From a virus (taxonomy: Duplodnaviria; Heunggongvirae; Uroviricota; Caudoviricetes): a stretch of 64,000 nt of DNA. The DNA lies in IMG/VR virus record IMGVR_UViG_2585427757_000006; one strand, given 5' to 3'. A model generated the notes under the pieces. That model saw nothing but the letters and a program-made list of their open reading frames with translations, had not been told where the DNA came from and ran no database searches. Position numbers and translations under genes: made by a program. Of the stretch, positions 1,097 through 52,290 are shown in pieces; positions within the stretch are counted from its first letter, which is position 1; each line of letters begins with the position of its first letter.

Positions 1097-1275
1097 GTGT
1101 TTTCTCCTTGTTGGTAAGTACTTATCTATCTTAATGGACGCTATAAGGCGCACAATCATTGTGTTCAGGCTGGTGGAAAGAACTTCTCCAGCGTGTGGTT
1201 GATAGCCTTATCAATGTGCATCAGGTGCCAGACGACCATATCTTTGCTTCCAATGCCGCGAGTGTAGATGAAGTG

Positions 1276-4994
<3,719 letters not shown>

Positions 4995-5008
4995 AATTGT
5001 AAATTCCC

Positions 5009-6172
5009 TTAATCAAAATTCTTCTGTTTCATTGCCTCAGCCGCTTTTTGCAGCGGTCCTTTCAAGGCTTTTTCTAACTTTGTCATCTGCTCTAAGTGCC
5101 ACGCAACCGCTTGGGGCCACGTCTCTTTATTAAACCCATCAGCTTTGGTCGAAAACTGAATACGGCAAGATTTCTTCTCATCCAGCCTCATCCACTCAAG
5201 TTCTGCACCAAAAGCATGTTCAATGTCCTGTTTGGACTGACTCAACAAGTCAAAAAGGTATTTATTCTCTTCGGTAACCCCACGGCTGATCCAAAGCTCT
5301 ACTCGAAGCTCTTTTTGCAGAAATATCAGGTTATACGGACACCCACTTAACCCTGAGCCTGCTGATAACCAGTGATCTTTGCTTGGGCTAATGTTGTTAT
5401 AGAGTTGGCAAACGCTTTTCTGAAACGCCTCTAAGGCACGCTCCCAGTACTCGCGACGCACCGTATGGCGGTTTTTAAGGACCACTTCGGTGGTTTTTTC
5501 TTCCGCTTCCTTGGCATTAATGCCGATCATCAACTCTTTCGCTTCTGGCGTTGGAATGATCTGGTCAATATTAATCAGTAGCTGTTCACCCAGTGAATAA
5601 GGCGTGATTTTGAAGCAGGCAATGCTAATGCCTTGACCCAATAACCACAGCGCGGTGCTGGTCACTTCTTTGCGAAAGTTTGCCGCAACTAGCATAATAC
5701 GCTGGCTGTTACCCAGGTTGAGCTTTAACTCATCCAGATCGGGCGCATCCAAAAATTCACATATTCTCGCCGAAGCACTTGCAGGGGCATTTAACAGGTC
5801 AACCTCTGCTGTTACAGGCTCATAGCGATCTAAGTACTGCTGGTAAATGTCAACTATTTGTGCTTTGGTTAAACTGGCACAGTAAGAGGCATATTTAAGG
5901 GCCTGCCACACCACATCTCGGCCACTGTCGTCCAGCTTATTTTCAATAATGACCAAGTTGCCATCTTTATCCAGTGCCAGTAAATCTAATCGTTCACGGG
6001 TGTCATCAAAGCCATCGAACTCTTTTTGAATAATCAACAACTCTTCACCCAATGCGGAAGGTTCGTGTGCCAACCACTCCTGAAGATGCTTGCGCTCAGT
6101 AAAGCCCAACTCACTGAACTTCTTTGTCCTAACAGGACTAATCCTGTTAGTTTGATGATTTACCGTGAACAT
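5009..6172 (-). CDS. uncharacterised 387-aa protein embedded in the hsd operon; N-terminal PD-(D/E)xK-like nuclease motif
   Basis: Tightly packed between hsdS stop (6182) and hsdR start (4994); motif RLDLLALDKDGNLVIIENKLD resembles a D..E-x-K nuclease core; no Walker A. Confidence 0.5.
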   Translation of the reverse strand: MFTVNHQTNRISPVRTKKFSELGFTERKHLQEWLAHEPSALGEELLIIQKEFDGFDDTRERLDLLALDKDGNLVIIENKLDDSGRDVVWQALKYASYCASLTKAQIVDIYQQYLDRYEPVTAEVDLLNAPASASARICEFLDAPDLDELKLNLGNSQRIMLVAANFRKEVTSTALWLLGQGISIACFKITPYSLGEQLLINIDQIIPTPEAKELMIGINAKEAEEKTTEVVLKNRHTVRREYWERALEAFQKSVCQLYNNISPSKDHWLSAGSGLSGCPYNLIFLQKELRVELWISRGVTEENKYLFDLLSQSKQDIEHAFGAELEWMRLDEKKSCRIQFSTKADGFNKETWPQAVAWHLEQMTKLEKALKGPLQKAAEAMKQKNFD

Positions 6173-6181
6173 ATTCGCGTC

Positions 6182-7462
6182 CTATTGCTCAACCATTTCT
6201 GGGGTGATTTTTATTTTTCCTGTCACGGCGCTGTTGATCAGGGTGGTTTTGTATTCTTTAAGCTTTTCAATCTGCGACTTTTGGATATCAATCGTGCGAT
6301 TCAGATCTGGCTCAATTCCTTCAATGAACGAAATTATTTCTTGAATTTCATCTTTTGGTGGCACTGGAACCAATACACTTGCAAGACGATCCCTTGTTAA
6401 TTTTGGCTGTGCCGCACCAGAAATATATACCGTATAGTCCAATCCGCTTAATAATTCGGCCCAGTATTTAAAACCATGAAATTTTGGCTTAATAATATGT
6501 GCATGGTTATTCACCCAATACTTTCCAGTTGCAACAAAAGCCAATGGTGTTGACTTGCTTAGCAAATTCGCGCCATCTTCAGCGATCAAGATTAAATCTT
6601 CATCAAAGATGTAGTCATCAACATAATCGATAACACCACTTGCTCCGTAATACGGATATACGCCCTGTCTCGACTCTCTCTCAACTGCGCTTATTGGAAC
6701 TCTTCTACTGTTAAGAAACTCAAACGCATATCTCAATGACATTAAGTTCCAATGCGCTGGAATCTTACCAATCCAATCCACACCGGAGTCTTTCATTGGC
6801 ACATTGGGATCAAGCCCTTGGGTCACCGCCTGTTGGATGATGATCTGCTTACGCTCTTTCAGCAGGCTAATTTGCTGCTCTTTGATCGAAATCGCTTCGT
6901 CGATTAGAGCGGTTTTCTTGTCGAGAAAATTTGCAATTAGGGACTGCTCTTCTTCTGAAGGCAGAACAAAAGGAATCACCTTCATCCGTGCTTTTGAAAG
7001 GTCCCACTGACCAATCCTTACACCATCTGATGCACTACCAAAAAACGATACATATAACTTACTGCGTATCGCCCAATTGAAAAACTCAGGATTTATTGCC
7101 TTTGTAAAATCAAAAATAAAATACGCAGGACTTACAATTCCAGTGAACTTTGATACACCGTAAGAACCCTGCCACGCTTTCATTTTATTCATTCCAAATT
7201 GACCTTTCTCAAGCTTTTTATAGCCGCTAAGATCATCTGGTATAAAATTGTGATTTGACTCTTGATTATCCACGTCTCTCTCGATAACACCTTGTTCGCG
7301 TGTTATCGAAAGTAGTGGCAATTCAGGGCAGTTTTTGACCGACACCGGAGATAGGCACGAGCCTAACTTAACCAAGTCCCAATGCTCTGGAATCTCGCCA
7401 ATCCACTCATAACCAGAGTCACTATATTGATCATACTTTAGCGTTGAGGTAATGCTTTCCAT
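6182..7462 (-). CDS. hsdS: type I restriction-modification specificity subunit (426 aa, two target-recognition domains)
   Basis: Size and bipartite architecture; position between hsdM and hsdR; start overlaps hsdM stop. Confidence 0.85.
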   Translation of the reverse strand: MESITSTLKYDQYSDSGYEWIGEIPEHWDLVKLGSCLSPVSVKNCPELPLLSITREQGVIERDVDNQESNHNFIPDDLSGYKKLEKGQFGMNKMKAWQGSYGVSKFTGIVSPAYFIFDFTKAINPEFFNWAIRSKLYVSFFGSASDGVRIGQWDLSKARMKVIPFVLPSEEEQSLIANFLDKKTALIDEAISIKEQQISLLKERKQIIIQQAVTQGLDPNVPMKDSGVDWIGKIPAHWNLMSLRYAFEFLNSRRVPISAVERESRQGVYPYYGASGVIDYVDDYIFDEDLILIAEDGANLLSKSTPLAFVATGKYWVNNHAHIIKPKFHGFKYWAELLSGLDYTVYISGAAQPKLTRDRLASVLVPVPPKDEIQEIISFIEGIEPDLNRTIDIQKSQIEKLKEYKTTLINSAVTGKIKITPEMVEQ

Positions 7463-9891
7463 TAGGCTTCTCCCTGAACTTCCGCCACTTTCACGCCTAA
7501 TATTTGTGCAATCAAACCATCAGCCTTCTGCTCTAGATTGATAATGTCAGTTGCTACTTCTTCAAGACTACGTAATGGCTTATGCAGATAGAAATACTTA
7601 TTGAAGCTGATTTCATAGCCAATTTTTACCGTATCTAGGTTTATCCATGCTTCATCGACATGAGGCTTCACTTCATCTAGGAAGTACTGGTAAATGCTTT
7701 GCTTTAATGGAACAGATTCTGTATCTCGCAGGTCTGAATTGGTCTCGTAAGTGATATACTCGCCTTTTTTACCGCCTTCTGCTGAAGGAACGGGGTAATA
7801 ACCAAAATCTGGCAAGTCAGCGACTTCACACTCATAGCGCTCCAGCAGGTCGTTTAATTTATCACCCGTTAATTTAACTACCTTTTTAACCACTTTCTTG
7901 GCGGTTTCGTCATACCAGCTCACCGCGTGAAGAATGGCATTTTTCTCAGGTGCTGAAAGCTTAATAGCATGGGCTTTTAGCGATTTATCAACTTGGGTTT
8001 TAAAGCTATTGAAGTCATCAAATTCAATGCTACCGATGTCAGCCATCAGCGTTTGTGCAGTTTCAAGCAATGCTTTTAGCGCCAGCCAGTGTTTCACATC
8101 AAGCAGTTTGGCCTTAGCCTTAGCATTGAGACTGATGTCGTTATCTTCACACCAAGAAAGAATGTCTTTCTCGATGGATTTTAAGAAGCTCTTTTTCTGA
8201 TCTGACCCGTAGCCAGTTTTTTCGTAAACACGTTCGCCGTGCTCTGCGTACACGTACTCCATCACTTCACTAAGTTGCTTATCAAAACGCAGTGGGGCTA
8301 TGGCATCTTGAGTAAACTTGGCTTTGCGGCGATCTGGGCGCTCGATAGTGACTTTGTAGTAGCCAAAATCGTCATTGCTGAATACCTTACTGGCGATGCC
8401 AACAGGATCATTGTTTGCATCCAGTGCTCTTTCAACATCCTTACACGCGAGGTAAGTATCGGTAATTTCCGTGATGTGCTCAGGCGCAAATTCGCAGTTT
8501 TTGTTACCTAAGTTCTTGCGCAACTTACGGTAGAGCAAGCTGGCATCAATTAATTGCACCTTACCTTTACGCGCCTCAGGTTTATTGTTGCTCAACACCC
8601 AAATGTAAGTGGTAATGCCAGTGTTATAGAACAGGTTATTAGGTAACTGAACGATGGCATCTAGCATGTCGTTTTCAATGATGAAGCGACGAATATTACT
8701 TTCACCACCGCCCGCATCTCCGGTAAAGAGCGATGAGCCGTTATGAACAGAGGCAATCCGGCTGCCTAATGGACTTACGCTCGGATCTTTCATCTTGTTG
8801 ACCATCTCCATTAAGAAAAGCAGCTGGCCATCACTCGAACGTGGCGTGGCATCCACCACTTCGAGATTTCCCCAATAGTCTTTCAGGCTAACCTTAAAAC
8901 GCGGGTCAATCACATCACTGCCGTCTTTAATGTACTTCTGTTCAGACGCCCAACTCTTACCGTATGGCGGGGTAGACAACATAAAGTCAAAGCGTGAAGC
9001 CGCAAACTCGTCGGTAGACAAGGTTGAGCCTACCTTGATGTTCTCAGGGTTGTTACCTTTGATCATCATGTCCGATTTACAAATCGCGTAGGTCTCGTCA
9101 TTGATCTCTTTGCCGTAAAGGTAAATATCTCGGCTGTCGTTCGGGTATTTCTCTTCAATGAAGTTTTGAGATTCAGTGAGCATACCACCGCTACCACACG
9201 CAGGGTCGTAAACGGTCATGGTCAATGGTAGCTGCTCTTTCACTGGGTCAAAAACCAAGTGTGTCATCAGCTCAATCACTTCCCTAGGTGTAAAGTGCTC
9301 ACCGGCTTCTTCGTTATTCTCCTCGTTGAACTTACGGATCAACTCTTCGAACACGTACCCCATACCCAGGTTAGTAAGGGCTGGCATCTTGTTGCCATCT
9401 GGGTCTTCGATCGTTTCATGAGTTAAGTTGATGTAAGGGGAAACAAACTTTTCGACGACATCAAGAAGGACTTGCTTTGAGGCCATGTGACGAATTTGCG
9501 ACTTGAGGTTAAAGCATTCAATGATTTCTTTAACATTATCGCTAAAGCTAAGCAGGTACTCTTCAAAGTTGGCGAGTAATATCTGTTGGTTATTCGTTGC
9601 GGTGTTGAACAGGGATTTCAGGGTCCATTTAGATGTATTGTAAAAAACATAACCACTAGCCGCCTTCAATGGTTCATCATCAAGCTCCGTGGCTTGCATC
9701 TCTTCTTTTTGGAACTTGACCTCTTCAAGCACGGCTTCTTTGGTGGGTTCAAGTAACGTATCTAAACGTCGTAATACCACCATAGGTAAAATCACATCGC
9801 GGTACTTACCGCGAACGTACACATCACGTAAACAGTCGTCGGCAATGTTCCATATAAATGAGATGAGCTTGTTATGTACACTATGATCCAT
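7462..9891 (-). CDS. hsdM: type I restriction-modification N6-adenine DNA methyltransferase, long form (~809 aa)
   Basis: HsdM N-terminal motif FIWNIADDCLRDVY; SAM motif VYDPACGSGGML; catalytic FDFMLSTPPYG; likely start MDHSV at 9891 (ORF-track start at 9927 is a TTG). Confidence 0.9.
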   Translation of the reverse strand: MDHSVHNKLISFIWNIADDCLRDVYVRGKYRDVILPMVVLRRLDTLLEPTKEAVLEEVKFQKEEMQATELDDEPLKAASGYVFYNTSKWTLKSLFNTATNNQQILLANFEEYLLSFSDNVKEIIECFNLKSQIRHMASKQVLLDVVEKFVSPYINLTHETIEDPDGNKMPALTNLGMGYVFEELIRKFNEENNEEAGEHFTPREVIELMTHLVFDPVKEQLPLTMTVYDPACGSGGMLTESQNFIEEKYPNDSRDIYLYGKEINDETYAICKSDMMIKGNNPENIKVGSTLSTDEFAASRFDFMLSTPPYGKSWASEQKYIKDGSDVIDPRFKVSLKDYWGNLEVVDATPRSSDGQLLFLMEMVNKMKDPSVSPLGSRIASVHNGSSLFTGDAGGGESNIRRFIIENDMLDAIVQLPNNLFYNTGITTYIWVLSNNKPEARKGKVQLIDASLLYRKLRKNLGNKNCEFAPEHITEITDTYLACKDVERALDANNDPVGIASKVFSNDDFGYYKVTIERPDRRKAKFTQDAIAPLRFDKQLSEVMEYVYAEHGERVYEKTGYGSDQKKSFLKSIEKDILSWCEDNDISLNAKAKAKLLDVKHWLALKALLETAQTLMADIGSIEFDDFNSFKTQVDKSLKAHAIKLSAPEKNAILHAVSWYDETAKKVVKKVVKLTGDKLNDLLERYECEVADLPDFGYYPVPSAEGGKKGEYITYETNSDLRDTESVPLKQSIYQYFLDEVKPHVDEAWINLDTVKIGYEISFNKYFYLHKPLRSLEEVATDIINLEQKADGLIAQILGVKVAEVQGEA

Positions 9892-10051
9892 TTTCTTTTC
9901 CTGTTCAGTGTTGGTTGCACCCCACAAAGTTGCTGCAACGGCTTCACTATAAATTTAAAATTCTGTTCTTTCTGTAACGCCTAAATGGCCTCTACATCGT
10001 TCGATTAACTTGTTCTACCCGGCGCTAGATTTAAGTTTATGACACCATAAA

Positions 10052-10100
10052 GTGAATCGCCACAGGTTTAATAGACTGAATCGCCACAGGTTTAACAGAC
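10052..10100. repeat. tandem direct repeat, 2 x ~24 bp (TGAATCGCCACAGGTTTAAYAGAC)
   Basis: Two adjacent near-identical copies in the intergenic region between the lipoprotein gene stop (10124) and hsdM start. Confidence 0.8.
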
Positions 10101-10123
10101 ACCTCAGAGTCATTTAAGATGAC

Positions 10124-10315
10124 TTAAAGAGAGGTGTACAGCTCGGTATTCAGACCAGTCCACTGACGGCCAACGCCGACAACTTCACCGATACCTTTGT
10201 CTTCACCCAATTTGTTTACTTTGATGCCAACGTACCCAGGCTCAACACGATCGCAGCCTGTAAGACCCATTGTGCAAACAGCAGCCACGATCACTGCCAG
10301 TAAACCTTTCTTCAT
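10124..10315 (-). CDS. small lipoprotein (63 aa)
   Basis: Signal peptide with lipobox LTGC (MKKGLLAVIVAAVCTMGLTGC). Confidence 0.5.
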   Translation of the reverse strand: MKKGLLAVIVAAVCTMGLTGCDRVEPGYVGIKVNKLGEDKGIGEVVGVGRQWTGLNTELYTSL

Positions 10316-10318
10316 TAC

Positions 10319-10519
10319 TTACTTCCCCTTCGAATTAATTAGTGACTTCAGAAAGTTACGACCAACATTAAAGCCGATAACAGGAGCGCCAAAAGCAACA
10401 ATGATTCCAAGCATTACGGCAATATCGCTTTTAGCCGAGATCAGCGACGGAACCAGCAAACAGTAGATGAAAACTACAGATATACCTGTAGCCACTGCCA
10501 TCAGATAGAGTTTGATCAT
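10319..10519 (-). CDS. small membrane protein (66 aa, two predicted TM helices)
   Basis: Hydrophobic segments LMAVATGISVVFIYCLLV and VMLGIIVAFGAPVIGF. Confidence 0.45.
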   Translation of the reverse strand: MIKLYLMAVATGISVVFIYCLLVPSLISAKSDIAVMLGIIVAFGAPVIGFNVGRNFLKSLINSKGK

Positions 10520-10609
10520 GTGTTTTCCTATGTGGCTATTGTGTGTAGATGGTGAGTAAGTGTTTATATATTTTCAAGGTATAAAGGCGTCCATTCGGAC
10601 GCCTGAAAA

Positions 10610-11683
10610 TTAATCTTCTAATTCATCTGTCGGTGATGTCTTCTCGCGCCTGTCATCTATTGCCTGTAACGCAGCAATGATTTCAGCTAATGGCTTCTCC
10701 CGGTACATCTCGACGATCTGTGATTTGGTGTATTTCTTCTCGCCAATTTCCACACGCCCGCTGGCGCTCTTGGGCAGGTATCCTTCCTCCAGCATGTATT
10801 CAACCAGAGACTCGACGACGTCCAGCCCGCGAGTCGGGTCGAAGTAGAATTTCCATGAGCATTTGCCAAACGGAGGCGCGACTTTGTTTTTAATGCACTC
10901 GGCGCCAACGTCCTGTCCGATCTTCTCTTTGCCATCCTTCATGACGGATGCACCCAGACGGATGCGCACCGACGCGTAGAACTTCGGAGAGTCGCCACCC
11001 GGAGACGTAGTCGGATCGCCAAACATCACACCAATTTTGGTACGCACCTGGTTCAAGAAGATGATGCACGCGTTGTACTTACGCGCCCAAAGCGCCAGAG
11101 TAGGGAAGTTCGCACTTGTCGCGCGCGCCAGCGCCGTGTTGTCGTTCATGTTCAGCTGATCTTTGTCTTTCGCAGTGCCTTCTGCCATCTTGTCGAACTT
11201 CTCAGCCTTCGAGTTCGGAACCATCGACGCCAGAGAGTCGGCTACGATGCAGATAGGGGCTGTTTCCGGAATAAGCTCTTCGTCGCGCACCAGCTTGAGG
11301 ATTGTGCCGATCAGCTCTACGGAGTCTTCGAAGGTATCCGGCTGTTTGTAGACCCACTGACCGTCATCCTCATCTGCGTTCAGGCCATTGGCTACAGCCA
11401 GGCCAACGTCAAAACTGTTTTCATGATCGAGGAATACCGCCAGACCATCTTGTTTTTGAGCGGAGATCATCGCTGCTGTTGCAAGGAACGTTTTCCCTGC
11501 ACTTGGAGGACCGAATACTTCGACGATACGACCACATGGGAAGCCGCCATCGTAACGACCAGAAATAGCTTTGTTTAACGGTGGAAAGCCTGTATCAATC
11601 CAATGAGTTACTTTCTGAATTTCGTCGTTGCTACCGATTTTCTTTTTCAGAGCAAGTGCCAGTGCGGATTTTCCTTTTGCCAT
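10610..11683 (-). CDS. RecA/UvsX-family recombinase
   Basis: RecA-like Walker A GPPSAGKTFLA and RecA-type N-terminal region FPPLNKAISG...GRIVEVFGP. Confidence 0.8.
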   Translation of the reverse strand: MAKGKSALALALKKKIGSNDEIQKVTHWIDTGFPPLNKAISGRYDGGFPCGRIVEVFGPPSAGKTFLATAAMISAQKQDGLAVFLDHENSFDVGLAVANGLNADEDDGQWVYKQPDTFEDSVELIGTILKLVRDEELIPETAPICIVADSLASMVPNSKAEKFDKMAEGTAKDKDQLNMNDNTALARATSANFPTLALWARKYNACIIFLNQVRTKIGVMFGDPTTSPGGDSPKFYASVRIRLGASVMKDGKEKIGQDVGAECIKNKVAPPFGKCSWKFYFDPTRGLDVVESLVEYMLEEGYLPKSASGRVEIGEKKYTKSQIVEMYREKPLAEIIAALQAIDDRREKTSPTDELED

Positions 11684-16609: not shown

Positions 16610-18973
16610 TCAAATATCGAAGCTCGTTATGTCGGCATTTATTGCCATTGCTTCGGCATAAGTGCGACGCTCACCATCAGCACAAAGTAGGCGTGCTGCT
16701 TTATGGATTTTTCTCGTAGAACCATCATCCAGTGACACTGTCACCCAGCCTTCCTCCGCTCGCTTAATGAAGTCGCCGCCAATGGATTTCATTTTCTCCA
16801 TATCTTTTTTCCCGATCGCTTTCCTGACCGAGTCTGCTTCCGCCATTGAGAACCCCGCCAAGATTCGCGTAGCAGCCATGATCTGTTCCTGATAAATCAG
16901 AACTCCGTTTGTGTCGCGAGAGATGTCGTCCAGCATTGGGTGTAAGGAATGTGGGGCCATGAAGCCTTTGGCCACGGACACATAATCGTCCAACATGCCG
17001 GATTGAATCGGGCCAGGTCGGAAGAGCGCAGTTGTAGCGACGACCGTTTTAAAGCTCATTGGCTCAATTCCACCACCTAAATCTTTAAGCAGCTTGCGCA
17101 TTGGGCCTGATTCAAGCTGGAATACGCCCTGTGTATACCCTGCAGCAAAACCATCCAGCACCTTGCGATCTTCAAGAGAAATGGCATCAAGATTGATATC
17201 TTCACCTGTGTTCTCTTTTATGTAGCGTTTTGCACTATCGAGCAAATCGAGAGTTGCCAGGCCAAGCACGTCCAGCTTAATTAGGCCCATAGCCTCGCAG
17301 TAACGCTTGTCAAATGCGATACAACGCGCGTCACCACGGCGTTCAACCGGTGTACGTTCTGTCAGAGGAACACCTGCTACGATCATCCCTGCCGCATGTC
17401 TACCAAAGCCACGCATAAGGCTTTGTAACTTGCAGGCTGCATTGAATGCATCAGGATATTTTGTTGCGTATTTGTCGAGACTTGCCAGTTGTTCGCGCAG
17501 CTCTTCCAATGGAAGGCTATCATCCTCGACGTTCTTCAGTTCTTTTGATACCGCCATATCTGCGGACTCCACACCATAAATACGAGCGGTGTCACGTAGT
17601 GCAGAGGCTGCGCCCAGGTAGGTGAAGTTCGGAATGCCTGCAACGTAATCTTCGCCGTAGCGTTCATTCAGATACTCGATCACCTCATGGCGACGTGCCT
17701 GGCTGAAGTCCAAGTCCGCATCCGGCAAGTCGAGACGCTCAGGGTTGATGAAACGCTCAAACAGAAGACCGTGACGGATTGGGTCGACGTTGGTTATGCC
17801 TATGCACCACGCCACCAGAGAACCGGCAGAGGAACCACGACCAGGCCCAACGGGAATGCCAGTTTCACGACTATGATTCATCAGATCGCGCACCATCAGG
17901 AAGTAACCACAGAATCCCAGGCGAGTCAGCGTGTCCATTTCGTACTTTAGCCGCTCAACATAAACCCTGTTCTCAGAAGCAGGTGGTGTGTATCCAAACT
18001 CTTTTGTGGTAAGACGTTTACGCAGCCCTGCAACAGCCAGTTTCATCAGCGTTGCAGGTTCGTCGTCTGCCATCTTGGGCAGTGCTGGTGGCAATTCATG
18101 CCAGCGCCATGTGCAGGCATCGATAATGGAGTCCTGCGTTGTTGAGGCCATTGCAGCTGTTACCGGCACATCCATGCGAACGGAGAAGGCTTTAAGCGCC
18201 TCAAGGAGATGGCGACGACCATTGATGGCGTTATCTCGCTGGTGGGGGATACGCAGACGATGCGGCTGGTCGATTTTTATGTTGTTCGTAACCATGTGCG
18301 CAATGTCTTTAATGTCTGCATCGTCGATCGATTCGTAATAAGCGGGATAGAACGCCACTGGCTCTATTTTCAATGCGCTGGCGACTTTCATCGCCCGGAC
18401 GTTAATCTGGTCGTAGAATGGGGTAGGGTGCGGATAAACCACACTATAGAAGTTGTCTTTTCCACCCGCTGTAATCAGTGTGCTTATGATTTTTGCAAAA
18501 TCGTTGCGTTGGAACACGCTACCGATGTCGGAAGTAAGCAGGATGATGTTGCCTTTGGCATATGTAGAAACCAACTGTTCGAGCGAGAGACGCGGCACAA
18601 AGTAGAACTGTTCTCGTGTGTTGGCCACCGTCATTAGTTCGCAGATGTCGCGATATCCTTGCTCATTTTTAATTAGAGCGGTAAACGAGTAGTTACGTCC
18701 CCGCTCTAATGATTCCATACATCTCATAGATTCTTTAGCAAGTTTAGCCCGGTGCTCGTATGTGGGATCATCAACAATGTTTAGTTTCACACCACAAATA
18801 ACCGCCATGTCGTCACCAGCGGCACGTTGTAGTGGAATAACGCTCGCAATATTCATGCTATCTGCTGAAATTACAGCGGTGTAGCCAGCTTCTCTGGCAA
18901 TCTTCACCGCGTTTTCAGCTTTTAGAGCCGACTCCCCAAGTGAGAAGTCAGTTCGAACCATCAGTGCCTTCAT
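16610..18973 (-). CDS. dnaE: DNA polymerase III alpha (DnaE-type) N-terminal segment (PHP plus polymerase core)
   Basis: GPGRGSSAGSLVAWCIGITNVDPI and LIKLDVLGLATLDLL match conserved DnaE core motifs. Confidence 0.85.
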   Translation of the reverse strand: MKALMVRTDFSLGESALKAENAVKIAREAGYTAVISADSMNIASVIPLQRAAGDDMAVICGVKLNIVDDPTYEHRAKLAKESMRCMESLERGRNYSFTALIKNEQGYRDICELMTVANTREQFYFVPRLSLEQLVSTYAKGNIILLTSDIGSVFQRNDFAKIISTLITAGGKDNFYSVVYPHPTPFYDQINVRAMKVASALKIEPVAFYPAYYESIDDADIKDIAHMVTNNIKIDQPHRLRIPHQRDNAINGRRHLLEALKAFSVRMDVPVTAAMASTTQDSIIDACTWRWHELPPALPKMADDEPATLMKLAVAGLRKRLTTKEFGYTPPASENRVYVERLKYEMDTLTRLGFCGYFLMVRDLMNHSRETGIPVGPGRGSSAGSLVAWCIGITNVDPIRHGLLFERFINPERLDLPDADLDFSQARRHEVIEYLNERYGEDYVAGIPNFTYLGAASALRDTARIYGVESADMAVSKELKNVEDDSLPLEELREQLASLDKYATKYPDAFNAACKLQSLMRGFGRHAAGMIVAGVPLTERTPVERRGDARCIAFDKRYCEAMGLIKLDVLGLATLDLLDSAKRYIKENTGEDINLDAISLEDRKVLDGFAAGYTQGVFQLESGPMRKLLKDLGGGIEPMSFKTVVATTALFRPGPIQSGMLDDYVSVAKGFMAPHSLHPMLDDISRDTNGVLIYQEQIMAATRILAGFSMAEADSVRKAIGKKDMEKMKSIGGDFIKRAEEGWVTVSLDDGSTRKIHKAARLLCADGERRTYAEAMAINADITSFDI

Positions 18974-47559: not shown

Positions 47560-50500
47560 TCACAGACGGCCAATTCTTACTCGTAGGACGTTGTTATCGT
47601 CATAAACGTCAATCCGCTGACCATTTATAACCAATCGCCCATTGCCGCCGCTATTACCGTTGATCTCCAGCGTTCCATTTTTGCCGAACCGCCATCCAGA
47701 TCTACCGCTAACAAAATTGGTAGATTGCAGATCGCCTACTTTTGCATTGGTGATTGTGCCATCCTTGATATACGCTCCATTCATATAGGCGATACTGTTT
47801 TCGATAACAAATGGCGTTGTGATCTTCCCGTTAACAGAGTTGACCAAACCAAACCTGTCCGCCTGAACCAAAAACTGAGATAGCCCAGTGGTGTCAATAC
47901 CAAGCGCAATACCGGCAACATACTTCTGCCCTCCGCTCGTTGAAGTCTCCATTTTCAACGTCCACGCGGTTGACACTTTTTTGTTGGTATCAGCAATAGC
48001 TGTTGCCTGCTGTTGAATTGTCGCGGTATTTCCATTCACCTCTGCTTTCAGAGTATCGATTCGCCCACTCAGAGCATTATCTGCCTGCGTTCTCGCTTTC
48101 GTTTCAGTTGTGACCGCCGCGGAAATGTTGGCTGCCGTTTGAGACTCTAAGTTTGTGATTTGAGTCGCCAATGCAGCATCTTGCTCTGTACGCGTTTTCG
48201 TTTCGGTTGCTACAGCCGCTTTAATATCCTCTTTGTATTGAGAGGTCAGCTTGGTGATCTGAGACGACAACGCCGAGTCAGCATCAGTTCGAGCCTGCGT
48301 TTCAACTGCAACGGCCGCACTAATATCTTTCGCTGTCTGTGCTTTTAAACTTGAAACCTCTTTTGTTAAAGCGGTATCACCATCTGCACGAGCCGTTGTT
48401 TCTCTGGCAAGAGACGCCTTGAGATCATTAGCTTTTGCTGTAAGAGACGTAATCTGGGTAGACAATGCACTATCGGCATCAGTCCTTGCTTTTGTCTCTA
48501 CAGCAACCGCTGCGGCAATATCAGTTCCGGTTTGTGCTCGCAGGCTGTTAATTTCTCGTGAGAGCGCCTGGTCAGCACTTGCTCTGGCCTCCTGCTCCTG
48601 AGTGATGGCAGCGGATATATCACCGTCAACCTTTGACTGAAGCTGGTTTATTTGTTTGGCTAACGCAGAGTCCCCGCTTGCTCGGGCCTCCTGCTCACTA
48701 CGTATTGCAGCAGAAATATCATCATCAACCTTTGCCTGAAGTTGGGTGATCTGGCTTGCCAGAGCCGAATCTTCCGTTACTCGGGCTTCTTGCTCTTCCT
48801 TAATAGCTGCGACGATATCGTTGCTTACTTTCGACTCAAGCTGAGTGATCTGTGTCGTCAGAGCTTCATCGGCAGATGTACGAGCCTCCTGCTCTGTACT
48901 AATCGCCGCGCTGATATCTCCTTCAAACTTAGATTGCAGCTGAGTGACACGCTTTGCCAACGCTTCATCGCCATCGGCACGAGCGGTGGACTCTTCCAGA
49001 ATACTGGCCTTAATGTCTTCGCCAATTTCTACGCGAATTTCCTCAACCTTCGTGGCCATTGCAGACATATCATCAGCAAAGGTTTTCTGTGTTGTTGCGA
49101 TCTTCGCGTTATTGACCATCTGCTTGTGCTGGTCTTCATCTTGACGAAGAGCCAGGTCAATATTTGTTTTGGCCAAAGCCTCAATGTTCGTAGTCAGTTC
49201 TGCACTGGCACGATCGACCTCTGCAACCGTCTTTTTCATTTCTTCAACGGCAGCGGAGCTTTCCTCTACCGTTGACTGCAACACTTCCAGTTGTTTAGCG
49301 TTTGCAGCATCCCCTTCAACACGAGCCTCGCTTTCCTTAGCAATAAGAGCCGCCGCTTCGTCTCTTGCAGCCTTTATTGCCTCGACTGTATTAGCGAGAG
49401 CTTTATCGTGTTCAGATACGGTGTTTTCGATTTCAACAATTGCAGCATCAGTAGCATCAATTTTTTCAAACGCTTCATTGACCTTGTCGATCGTTGCCGA
49501 AACCTCACCTTTAAGCTCGGTTTGTGCGTTCTCCAAAGCATCGCTACGCTCGTTGAATTTTATTTCAAAACCCGCGAGGTTATCGCTGAACTGCTTATCT
49601 AATTCAGCTATATCTTCCTTAACGTCGTTTACCGACCCCTCCAAAGATTCGACGCTCTGGTTGATATGCTCATTTAACTCGTCAACTGCTTCTTGAGAGA
49701 CTTTGCTGTTGATGTCCTCAAGCAGAGCCTGACCAAGCTCGGAAGATGTAATTTTGCCAGTCAGGAACGACAGTACATCGCGAGTTGTCGCCTCTGTTCC
49801 CAAGTTTGAGTTCGGAGGACTTAACATACCTCGCTTGTTCGATGCTCGAACCCAGTAATACCACGTTTCGCTATCCCCAAGACCAGCATGTGTAAAGGTG
49901 GTGCTTGCAGACTCTGCGATCAGTTTCGCCGTATCCAGATTGTTGGTCTGGGATGCGTAAACATTAATGTGATCAAGGTCTACCGAATCTGGATTAACCC
50001 AATTCAGTATCACATTACGATAGTCTCCAACGGCCGTTAATGACGTTGGGGCATCTGGCGGTGTCATTGTGCCCAACACCTGATAAACGGTACTGATAAT
50101 CTCTGTTTTTTTACCGTTGAATGAAACCGCATACAGCTGGAAGTCGTAGCGTCCATTCTCCGCGACATTAACGATTTCGTATTGCTCTTCGGTTACACGC
50201 GCCGATTGCCAGTTCGATACATTGTTTTCATCAGAACGTCGCCAACTGATCCAATACTCTGGAGATTTCCCTTCCCATGTTGCAGTCAGTTTTACTGACA
50301 GGTTGCCCGGGCTTGAGAGGTAAGTCCCTTCAGTGATTTGCAAATTAGACGGCTTGGAGTAAGTCGGGTCCAATACCGTCGTATTCTGCGGGATAAGCGT
50401 TGCACCATTGTCGATCGCCTCATATTTAGACGGATTGTTTTCAACAGCGGTGATGTCAAAGCTACCCGACGTTTCCCCCTGAGCGATGTTAACGATGCGA

Positions 50501-52290
50501 ACGCGCATAGGTTCGAGATCTGGTTCTGTAATTGTCCAGACACCGTTCAAAACAGGCGTTTCCGCTGACGACAGGGCTTTTGAAAACGTAACCTTTGTTA
50601 TGTTTTCGCCAGTTTCAAGAACATCGCGCTCAACGATTTTGCCTTCCTGATTCAATATCCGAATAAAGCTGCCGCTTTTAGCTAACGACACAGGCGCATC
50701 GAGAGTGATGCTGTTTTTGGTAAACTCCACAATTCGACCGGAGTTACGTTTACCTGCACGATATTTGTTCTGAATCAGAACGGTTTCACCAGGCATCAGA
50801 AATGAGGCGTCTAAGCCGGCAGTAAATGTAATTACATCCGACTCCATTCTGGCGGTATACAAAAGCCACAAACCAACTCGGTGAGCCTGGCCTCGGCTTG
50901 TACATCCAAATGCTACGACTTCTGTTTTACGCTCACCATAACGGCGCATTGCGTCCTGATCTTCAACGTATTCGATGTTTTGCTTATAACCGTCCTCCTT
51001 GTTGTTGTAGGTTACGAGCGCAACGGATGGGCGATCTTTACGCGCAGAACCTTTATAGGTAAACAGTCCATCTTTGACGTTGGAGTTGGTAAACATCATT
51101 ACCGGATCTGATGGGCTATCCTGCATGATGTTAACCATGCCACCAGCCCAAAACACCATGCCGCGGAATGCACCGGCAATATCCTGAATTAATCGGTATG
51201 CGTCTTGTCGACTGGTGATCTGCGTATTGATTGCAAAGCGTTTCTCTTTACCCCCAAAGCCATCATCGACCTCTTCGTCACAATATCGACCAATCTGGTA
51301 GAGCTGGCCGAGGTCAATCATGGATTCCGACACAAATTGCCCAAGACCATACCGAGTATTGGTAAGCAAATCGTAGAGAATCCACGCAGGGTTTGAAGAA
51401 GACAACAGCTTAAAAGTACCGTCCCATACGCCGACATAAGTATTGGTGTATTCGTTGTAGTTTGACGGTACTCGGATTTTGATACCGCGCACCAAATACG
51501 AACGGGAAGGCATTGTGCTACCAAACTGCTCTGAATTGACCTTCAAGCCAACAAGAGCAGAGTTAGGGTAGTTCATTGGCGTGTCGACAATCTCACCGAT
51601 GGAATCAACCCATGTGTCGTTGTAGAGGTACTGGCTACTATTATCATCTGTAAGACGAATCACCCTAACCTTGTATGCACGACCAGGCTTAGGCAGTTTC
51701 AGCTCATAGCTACGGTAATACACGCCGGTTTTCTTTGCCGTTAGCGTGATATCAACGCTTTTCTCACCTTCTGCCACTACATCAGAAAATGTTGCGTCTG
51801 CGTTGGCGATCTGGAATTTGTACTTCACCGTAGTGTCATTTGTATCGCCAGAGCTTTTATCAACGCTACGTAAAGAGGGGAATTTCATGATGACACGAAC
51901 GCGATCAGCTTCATCGTTATCGATTGAAACCGTAACGTCGTGGGTTTTTTTAAGGTGAATATTTACGGACTTAGGCGTTTCAACAAAATCAAAACCAGCC
52001 ATTGGCGTCTGGTCTTGTGAGCCGTCACGAAAATCCCATGTAATACCGCTGAAGTTGGAAGAGCCATCTTCATTCAAGATCGGTAAATCGTCGATGAAGA
52101 TCGACTTTGCGCCATTTACCAGGCCACCGATAACCCCCTCGCCAAGAAGGTCGAGGATGGCTGCCATAGCACGAGAATTGACAGTATCATCAGCTTCAAC
52201 CGGGGTACGGCTGGAGCTTTTACTTTTCTTGCCACCAGCACCGGCAATAAGAAGCGGTAATTTTTTCTTCTTGAACTGTTCCATGTCCAA
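47560..52290 (-). CDS. lambda J-like central tail fibre / host-specificity protein (1576 aa) with a long coiled-coil repeat array
   Basis: AFGCTSRGQAHRVGLWLLYT and FLTGKITSSELGQALLE align with lambda J as recalled; ~15 tandem ~25-aa repeats; J-like C-terminal block. Confidence 0.9.
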   Translation of the reverse strand: MDMEQFKKKKLPLLIAGAGGKKSKSSSRTPVEADDTVNSRAMAAILDLLGEGVIGGLVNGAKSIFIDDLPILNEDGSSNFSGITWDFRDGSQDQTPMAGFDFVETPKSVNIHLKKTHDVTVSIDNDEADRVRVIMKFPSLRSVDKSSGDTNDTTVKYKFQIANADATFSDVVAEGEKSVDITLTAKKTGVYYRSYELKLPKPGRAYKVRVIRLTDDNSSQYLYNDTWVDSIGEIVDTPMNYPNSALVGLKVNSEQFGSTMPSRSYLVRGIKIRVPSNYNEYTNTYVGVWDGTFKLLSSSNPAWILYDLLTNTRYGLGQFVSESMIDLGQLYQIGRYCDEEVDDGFGGKEKRFAINTQITSRQDAYRLIQDIAGAFRGMVFWAGGMVNIMQDSPSDPVMMFTNSNVKDGLFTYKGSARKDRPSVALVTYNNKEDGYKQNIEYVEDQDAMRRYGERKTEVVAFGCTSRGQAHRVGLWLLYTARMESDVITFTAGLDASFLMPGETVLIQNKYRAGKRNSGRIVEFTKNSITLDAPVSLAKSGSFIRILNQEGKIVERDVLETGENITKVTFSKALSSAETPVLNGVWTITEPDLEPMRVRIVNIAQGETSGSFDITAVENNPSKYEAIDNGATLIPQNTTVLDPTYSKPSNLQITEGTYLSSPGNLSVKLTATWEGKSPEYWISWRRSDENNVSNWQSARVTEEQYEIVNVAENGRYDFQLYAVSFNGKKTEIISTVYQVLGTMTPPDAPTSLTAVGDYRNVILNWVNPDSVDLDHINVYASQTNNLDTAKLIAESASTTFTHAGLGDSETWYYWVRASNKRGMLSPPNSNLGTEATTRDVLSFLTGKITSSELGQALLEDINSKVSQEAVDELNEHINQSVESLEGSVNDVKEDIAELDKQFSDNLAGFEIKFNERSDALENAQTELKGEVSATIDKVNEAFEKIDATDAAIVEIENTVSEHDKALANTVEAIKAARDEAAALIAKESEARVEGDAANAKQLEVLQSTVEESSAAVEEMKKTVAEVDRASAELTTNIEALAKTNIDLALRQDEDQHKQMVNNAKIATTQKTFADDMSAMATKVEEIRVEIGEDIKASILEESTARADGDEALAKRVTQLQSKFEGDISAAISTEQEARTSADEALTTQITQLESKVSNDIVAAIKEEQEARVTEDSALASQITQLQAKVDDDISAAIRSEQEARASGDSALAKQINQLQSKVDGDISAAITQEQEARASADQALSREINSLRAQTGTDIAAAVAVETKARTDADSALSTQITSLTAKANDLKASLARETTARADGDTALTKEVSSLKAQTAKDISAAVAVETQARTDADSALSSQITKLTSQYKEDIKAAVATETKTRTEQDAALATQITNLESQTAANISAAVTTETKARTQADNALSGRIDTLKAEVNGNTATIQQQATAIADTNKKVSTAWTLKMETSTSGGQKYVAGIALGIDTTGLSQFLVQADRFGLVNSVNGKITTPFVIENSIAYMNGAYIKDGTITNAKVGDLQSTNFVSGRSGWRFGKNGTLEINGNSGGNGRLVINGQRIDVYDDNNVLRVRIGRL

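Follow-up and report, generated by a model that had tools for sequence, protein, structure and literature searches.

The tandem repeat at positions 10053-10100 of the window, the 64,000-nucleotide stretch of DNA analysed here, most probably (about 85%) consists of the 24 terminal bases at the left extremity of an IS3-family insertion sequence (IS), present twice in succession, and would represent inert IS debris rather than a control element of the phage-plasmid in which it resides. The repeat was recovered by Tandem Repeats Finder with a period of 24, 2.0 copies, 95% matches and a score of 89, which bears out the two back-to-back units noticed in the sequence-only reading and moves their start from 10052 by one base to 10053. 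The two copies are identical at 23 of 24 bases, the sole difference being at nt 19, which is T in copy 1 and C in copy 2. When up to three mismatches were allowed, neither strand of the 64-kb window yielded a further copy (shuffled sequence also expects 0), and the exact tandem is absent from the GTDB representative genomes, a collection with one genome per species. In the RefSeq/PLSDB records of the identical plasmids described below, the 84-nt stretch containing the tandem has no annotated feature; our results indicate that it should be annotated as IS remnants and not as an origin or an operator.

The region 9900-10200 is 100% identical to ~113-kb E. coli plasmids, such as pNT1F31-113kb, and the backbone on either side matches the phages SSU5 and Cyrano, S. 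Typhi pHCM2 and Y. pestis pMT1. Consequently, the window represents an SSU5/pHCM2-like phage-plasmid carrying a type I restriction-modification (R-M) island. All genes around the repeat are encoded on the minus strand (Table 1), with recA and a small membrane-protein gene upstream of it. The repeat had been described as lying between the last gene of the replication operon and hsdM; this placement is correct for the minus strand, with hsdM downstream, but the upstream ‘last gene’ is in fact a pseudogene fragment, namely, the 5' part of an SPFH/band-7 gene that is intact in pHCM2. The open frame of this fragment (63 codons, 10124-10315) continues into the IS leader and reaches a stop codon at 10124-10126. 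At the recA locus (L006 12277-14616) of pNT1F31-113kb, a plasmid nearly identical in other respects, the annotated product of a 2340-nt gene is a ‘LAGLIDADG family homing endonuclease’, the window recA encoding 357 aa, and dnaE of this plasmid spans 3507 nt (L006 19419-22925), the dnaE-sized open reading frame of the window encoding 787 aa (16610-18973, minus strand). These differences in size and annotation suggest that the sibling phage-plasmids differ by intein or homing endonuclease insertions in recA and dnaE.

Table 1. Coordinates of the features discussed in the text; positions refer to the window unless another record is given.
Feature	Position	Strand	Remarks
Left border, IS911-like IS3-family fragment	1270..1962	-	rve transposase gene without N-terminus
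Type I R-M operon	1977..9891	-	Pfam hits and RefSeq annotation of identical plasmids
hsdR	1977-4994	-	
DUF4268 gene	5009-6172	-	
hsdS	6182-7462	-	
hsdM	7462-9891	-	
Native WYL-hsdM spacer, 113 nt	9892..10004	-	conserved with Vibrio locus
WYL-domain gene remnant	10005..10052	-	last 15 codons and stop, cut by IS tip
WYL gene	L010 6106-7029		counterpart of window remnant 10005-10052
Copy 1	10053..10076	+	TGAATCGCCACAGGTTTAATAGAC; read as first 24 nt of IRL of a T-type ISEhe3-like IS; solo tip abutting the truncated WYL gene
Copy 2	10077..10100	+	TGAATCGCCACAGGTTTAACAGAC; read as first 24 nt of IRL of the truncated C-type IS copy
Truncated IS left end, 60 nt of 1229 bp	10077..10136	+	imperfect IRL of ~33 nt and leader
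Hairpin	10099..10137	+	IS leader stem-loop = 10100-10136
Right junction AGGTG, 5-bp microhomology	10132..10136		three-way alignment of window, pHCM2 and full IS
SPFH/band-7 5' fragment, pseudogene	10137..10315	-	RefSeq: ‘SPFH ... incomplete, missing C-terminus’
Small membrane-protein gene	10319-10519	-	upstream of repeat
recA	10610-11683	-	upstream of repeat

The assignment of the repeat to an IS is based on several sequence comparisons. Copy 2 aligns base for base with the left ends of full IS copies in phage SfIV and in Cronobacter and Leclercia plasmids, and the G-type copies found in ev099, mEp332 and Klebsiella differ from it at nt 12. When the region 9000-11000 was compared with phages by Megablast, SfIV, the Escherichia phages ev099 and mEp332 and Klebsiella phages were matched over 10068/10077-10136 only, with 94-97% identity over 60-69 nt. 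In the annotated phage records, the matched stretch is located immediately 5' of a transposase gene, which in Shigella phage SfIV is labelled ‘ISEhe3 orfA’; the name ISEhe3 used here is that of the SfIV record annotation. Copy 1 together with the leader, used as a query, matched 69 PLSDB plasmid records at 100%, demonstrating that a natural T-type variant of the IS exists. The IS is widespread: depending on the query, it occurs in about one-fifth to one-third of the complete E. coli genomes (>1,000 genomes), and it is also present in many genera of Enterobacterales.

The full IS copy taken as reference (L009 2520-3748) is 1229 bp long and has TG...CA tips and imperfect terminal repeats, with the left inverted repeat (IRL) TGAATCGCCACAGGTTTAACAGAC and the reverse complement of the right inverted repeat (IRR) TGAATCGCCAC[A/G]GATAAT[C/T]TAGAC. 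It encodes orfA with an HTH_Tnp_1 domain and orfB with an rve domain, which are separated by an A7G slippery run, and two of the full copies are flanked by 3-bp direct repeats (TCT in L008 and ATA in L009). With respect to the hallmarks of the IS3 family, the left end and the leader of the window element match those of SfIV, L007 and L009; the TG...CA tips, the inverted repeats and a length of 1.2-1.5 kb are found in the full reference copies, the window retaining left tips only; and the orfA/orfB pair with its -1 frameshift is missing from the window and present in L009. Alignment with full copies further shows that the remnant ends 3 nt short of the orfA ATG, at GGTG, and no right IS end was found in the window. 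Lacking orfA, orfB and the right end, the window element cannot transpose and is to be regarded as a remnant or scar rather than as a functional member of the family. Thus, positions 10077-10136 correspond to the first 60 nt of an ISEhe3-type IS, comprising the IRL and the leader stem-loop, and all that the window keeps of the 1229 bp are these 60 nt and the additional 24-nt tip. The feature is of an already known kind, a remnant of a very common IS.

The hairpin ACACCTC...GAGGTGT, which had been noticed after the repeat, is confirmed with coordinates 10099-10137 and falls within the IS leader. The plus-strand RNA of 10077-10150 folds at -19.7 kcal/mol (z = -2.9), and the SfIV copy of the IS folds into the same stem-loop as the window; some IS copies display an A-to-G change in the stem, whereby the pair is kept as U-G. 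As T10137 belongs to the backbone, the A-T pair at the base of the stem (10099/10137) is a chance pairing. The 3' arm of the stem-loop, GAGAGGTG, constitutes the Shine-Dalgarno region of orfA. In several IS, a stem in the leader is known to sequester the ribosome-binding site when the element is transcribed by read-through. A search for Rfam families in 9800-10400 yielded none at E <= 1. We also considered the hairpin as a transcription terminator and rejected this possibility: it has no T-run, the bases after the stem being ACAGCT on the plus strand and CTGTTAAA on the minus strand, and no terminator-like call was made at 10099-10137 on either strand.

One of the roles that had been proposed for the repeat is that of an iteron-like site, i.e., a protein-binding repeat involved in replication, partition or regulation. 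Such a role would agree with the intergenic position of the direct repeat, with its length of approximately two helical turns and with the proximity of genes for replication and recombination, and plasmid iterons are likewise short direct repeats of ~22-24 bp. Iterons, however, occur in several copies at an origin or rep gene and are conserved in relatives, whereas here only two copies are present in 64 kb, even when three mismatches are allowed, and they are not near a rep gene; the search for further copies in the window, which had been recommended as a check, therefore counts against the iteron. The comparison with relatives lacking the island, also recommended, gave a clear outcome: pHCM2, pMT1 and SSU5, which replicate normally without the island and match the window from 10132 onward only, do not contain the repeat. 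Furthermore, one sibling plasmid carries a single copy, and the sequence itself is that of an IS terminus, the IS in question occurring in >1,000 E. coli genomes and many other genera. We consider the probability of an iteron-like function to be negligible, and the repeat likely has no role in replication.

The opposite flank of the repeat reveals what the IS has interrupted. Homology between the window and a Vibrio gigantis plasmid ends at 10052/10053, exactly where copy 1 starts, and the Vibrio sequence runs on as a gene for a WYL-domain protein. The IS has accordingly inserted into the WYL gene, and everything 5' of the last 15 codons of that gene is gone. The translation of the remnant, LYGVINLNLAPGRTS, corresponds to ...ALYGVTNLNLAPGRTS in V. 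gigantis p1, where an intact WYL-hsdM-hsdS-DUF4268-hsdR locus is contained in a Tn7-like element and adjoins its tnsD and tnsE genes. The region upstream of hsdM displays a mean column identity of 94% with the Vibrio sequence, in a pairwise alignment that includes the WYL remnant and the first hsdM codons. The DUF4268 protein (387 aa) is encoded between hsdS and hsdR, a position kept in all three settings of the operon, namely, the E. coli chromosomes, the phage-plasmids and Vibrio.

This arrangement bears on a further proposal, according to which the repeat contributes to the promoter or operator of the hsd genes, for instance, as an outward-facing IS promoter driving hsdM. IS ends are known to create promoters; on the coding strand, the repeat precedes the hsdM ATG by ~160 nt, and removal of the native WYL gene makes a new source of transcription or regulation plausible. 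Nevertheless, the V. gigantis locus, which is free of the IS, retains the hsdM upstream sequence, including the 113-nt spacer, without the repeat, and the natural variant with a single copy keeps an intact hsd operon. A consensus scan of 9700-10700 found no sigma-70-like site, with -35 and -10 hexamers spaced by 16-18 nt, at threshold on the minus strand, although such a scan can miss weak or activator-dependent promoters. The only promoter-like match within the repeat, TTAACA-17-TAAGAT at 10092-10120, is on the plus strand and directed away from hsdM, towards the dead IS; it probably represents a weak promoter that the IS carries in its IRL. A promoter or operator role of the repeat is thus very unlikely, and any hsd-proximal promoter is likely to be seated in the 113-nt spacer. 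A side effect of the repeat on hsd transcription is possible, but the only plausible effect on the hsd genes would be an indirect one, through removal by the IS of the WYL gene, whose product was probably a regulator. WYL-domain proteins encoded beside defence systems are commonly transcriptional regulators. In addition, the hsd operon is now located directly behind the recA-SPFH' unit with no terminator between them, an arrangement that might affect its expression.

In the phage-plasmid, the R-M island of ~8.87 kb occupies the place of ~1.48 kb of pHCM2-type backbone, and the backbone lost to the island comprises the 3' two-thirds of the SPFH gene, a DUF2591 gene and a portion of the gene that follows it. 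At the right border, homology to pHCM2 and pMT1 begins at 10132, with 100% identity, and the pentanucleotide AGGTG is common to the IS leader (...GAGAGGTG|CCCATG) and the SPFH gene (...GGAAGGTG|TACAGC). The alignment of the three sequences shows this to be the actual right junction, formed by illegitimate recombination inside the IS leader and the SPFH gene. At the left border, the terminal repeat TGAAGTGTCAACAAAAACTGG of an IS911-like fragment begins at 1270 and meets the backbone exactly at its tip. This terminal repeat is one G short of the copy in E. coli AR_0085 (TGAAGTG-TCAAC versus TGAAGTGGTCAAC).

The tandem next to hsdM is not restricted to phage-plasmids. The hsdM upstream region, the WYL remnant and copies 1 and 2 are also found in E. 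coli chromosomes (e.g., AR_0085), in two other plasmids and in metagenome contigs. Outside the phage-plasmids, an IS911-like end truncates the IS leader at nt 46 (window position 10122), in place of the truncation at nt 60 by the SPFH gene; given this second IS911-like end, the chromosomal islands are flanked by IS911-like sequences in the same orientation. The plasmid and chromosomal versions must derive from a common ancestor in which the tandem, with 60 nt or more of the IS, was in place. Since this ancestor already had the tandem, the latter predates the arrival of the island in the phage-plasmid and is not a scar of its entry.

These observations also decide against the repeat being a target duplication or an attachment-site scar left when the R-M island entered. 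Its location within 40 nt of the boundary between the island and the backbone is what such a scar would show, but the identical tandem is present beside hsdM in chromosomal islands with a different right junction, which led us to reject this candidate; moreover, no matching copy exists at the other border, which is an IS911-like tip, and the real junction is the AGGTG at 10132-10136. An entry scar is, accordingly, extremely unlikely. The suggestion that the repeat is an insertion scar nevertheless retains some truth, as an IS did insert into the WYL gene; it fails for the entry of the island, the true junction of which lies 32-36 nt further right.

The tandem is nearly invariant at the plasmid junction, being present in 27 of the 28 PLSDB records with this junction and in 20 of the 21 plasmid records from the complete E. 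coli genomes. The sole exception in both collections is pM160133_p3, which carries a single C-type copy and an intact hsd operon. As the tandem is common to the chromosomal and plasmid islands, the single copy is more simply explained by later loss, and we read it as a secondary 24-bp deletion, with the polarity assigned by parsimony. A sibling phage-plasmid with the hsd junction, E. coli S56 plasmid B, additionally carries a truncated T-type IS of 437 bp (L248 2460-2937) directly against an IS1 terminal repeat. This piece lies near a yehD-type fimbrial gene and an assembly chaperone gene, has no counterpart in the window and marks another IS-bounded accessory segment.

How the tip of the IS came to be doubled is a separate question, on which the identification of the IS does not depend. 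We lean towards a model in which a C-type IS was nested, in direct orientation, in the IRL of a T-type IS. The WYL gene would first have been hit by a T-type IS, whose IRL would subsequently have received a C-type sister IS in the same orientation, the break falling behind nt 24. The part of the T-type IS beyond this break would have disappeared next, and the C-type IS would later have shrunk to its first 60 nt; recombination between the two IS bodies, which formed a direct repeat, and/or deletion would account for these losses. Consistent with this scenario, copy 1 starts exactly at the IS tip and the single mismatch between the copies is at a site where natural IS variants differ. Comparable structures occur elsewhere. 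A complete A-type IS in the Leclercia plasmid pCOL314-2 is immediately preceded by nt 1-20 of a G-type IRL, and at the same site Escherichia sp. ESNIH1 carries an intact G-type IS alone. The IMG/VR contig L135 contains a 20-nt tip duplication with a different flank, in which the tips are identical. The 20-nt duplications in pCOL314-2 and L135 are independent cases and support an origin from two IS.

These structures were placed in a wider context by searching IMG/VR and metagenome contigs for any tip-tip tandem with a gap of 0-30 nt. The IMG/VR matches comprised four at the same hsd junction and one new 20-nt case, whereas all nine IS-related matches in the metagenomes represented the same hsd junction, the other ~100 loci being unrelated, with an 11-mer occurring twice. 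In a subset of metagenome contigs (L138, L156 and L184), the 11-mer TGAATCGCCAC is repeated every 41 nt in long regular arrays that are unrelated to the IS.

The nested model predicts a reciprocal junction, in which the IRR is followed by GAC and by the IRL from nt 25 (IRR-GAC-ACCTCAGAG; IRR-AAC-AGACACC in the 20-nt cases). The junction with the IRL from nt 25 was found in none of the 72,556 PLSDB plasmids or 5,426 E. coli genomes, so that the nested state has never been seen intact and the origin of the tandem stays inferred. A nested pair would, however, form a 1.2-kb direct repeat, which homologous recombination should quickly collapse to a tip followed by one IS, and this would explain the missing reciprocal junction. 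At the right flank of the Leclercia case, neither a target duplication nor a remainder of the resident IS was found.

The alternative is duplication in situ, whereby the 24 nt of a single IS tip were doubled by slippage or aberrant repair and one copy subsequently underwent the C/T change. The failure to find an intact nested structure or the reciprocal junction in PLSDB and the E. coli genomes is compatible with this explanation, as are the single copy of pM160133_p3 and the two identical 20-nt tips of L135, which are what a fresh duplication would produce. Yet in each of the three independent cases the first base of the duplicated unit is the first base of the IS, which is automatic for nesting and unlikely for random slippage, and its borders show no microhomology, copy 1 being preceded by AAG and each copy ending in GAC. 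The mismatch, moreover, coincides with a natural IS variant, which a random change in copy 1 would match in only ~1/72 of cases, and in Leclercia the tip and the following IS are two different natural variants, the variant of the tip being found intact at the same site elsewhere. As to the single copy of pM160133_p3, the presence of the tandem in both chromosomal and plasmid islands makes later loss the simpler explanation. On balance, duplication in situ appears unlikely, and nesting of one IS in another remains our preferred account.

The three known tip duplications, of 24 nt here and of 20 nt each in the Leclercia plasmid and the IMG/VR contig, raise the tentative possibility of recurrent self-targeting, in which ISEhe3-type IS enter the IRL of a sister copy at nt 20 or 24 in the same orientation and collapse of the resulting pair leaves a tip followed by an IS. 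No preference for targets resembling its own ends was detected among 106 unique insertion sites of the IS, for which the mean flank score was 4.80, compared with 4.80 for shuffled sequences; given the lack of a general preference, insertion into a sister IRL must be rare. The flanks of L008 and L009 do resemble the ends of the IS (shuffle p of 0.006 and 0.0015, respectively), but we discarded these two sites as evidence of targeting, such values being expected for the best of ~1,500 BLAST-ranked records. A parallel is offered by the targeted insertion of IS911, likewise an IS3-family element, for which the end of a sister copy already in place serves as the target. IS911 reportedly inserts next to sequences resembling its own ends and is said to do so beside the target repeat. 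Compared with this reported geometry, the break considered here falls inside the repeat (at nt 24, or at nt 20 in the other cases) and the tips are in direct rather than inverted orientation.

In a broader perspective, the locus conforms to the familiar pattern of accessory islands bounded by IS remnants, with an IS911-like sequence on the left, an ISEhe3-like sequence on the right and a defence system between them; nothing of substance sets it apart from such islands, the tandem tip being merely an unusually tidy footprint. Gain and loss of IS have been documented in phage-plasmids of the SSU5 group. Taken together, the comparisons outline the history of a type I R-M operon that lost its WYL gene to an IS and then spread in E. 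coli chromosomes and SSU5-like phage-plasmids. The loss of the WYL gene and the fusion of the operon behind recA-SPFH' may have altered the expression of restriction from the phage-plasmid.

Apart from the repeat at the island border, the window contains a 99-bp tandem repeat at 48578-48795 (2.2 copies, 76% matches, Tandem Repeats Finder score of 222), which is by far its strongest. This repeat lies inside a minus-strand open reading frame of 1576 aa (47560-52290), in which it would give rise to protein repeats of 33 residues.
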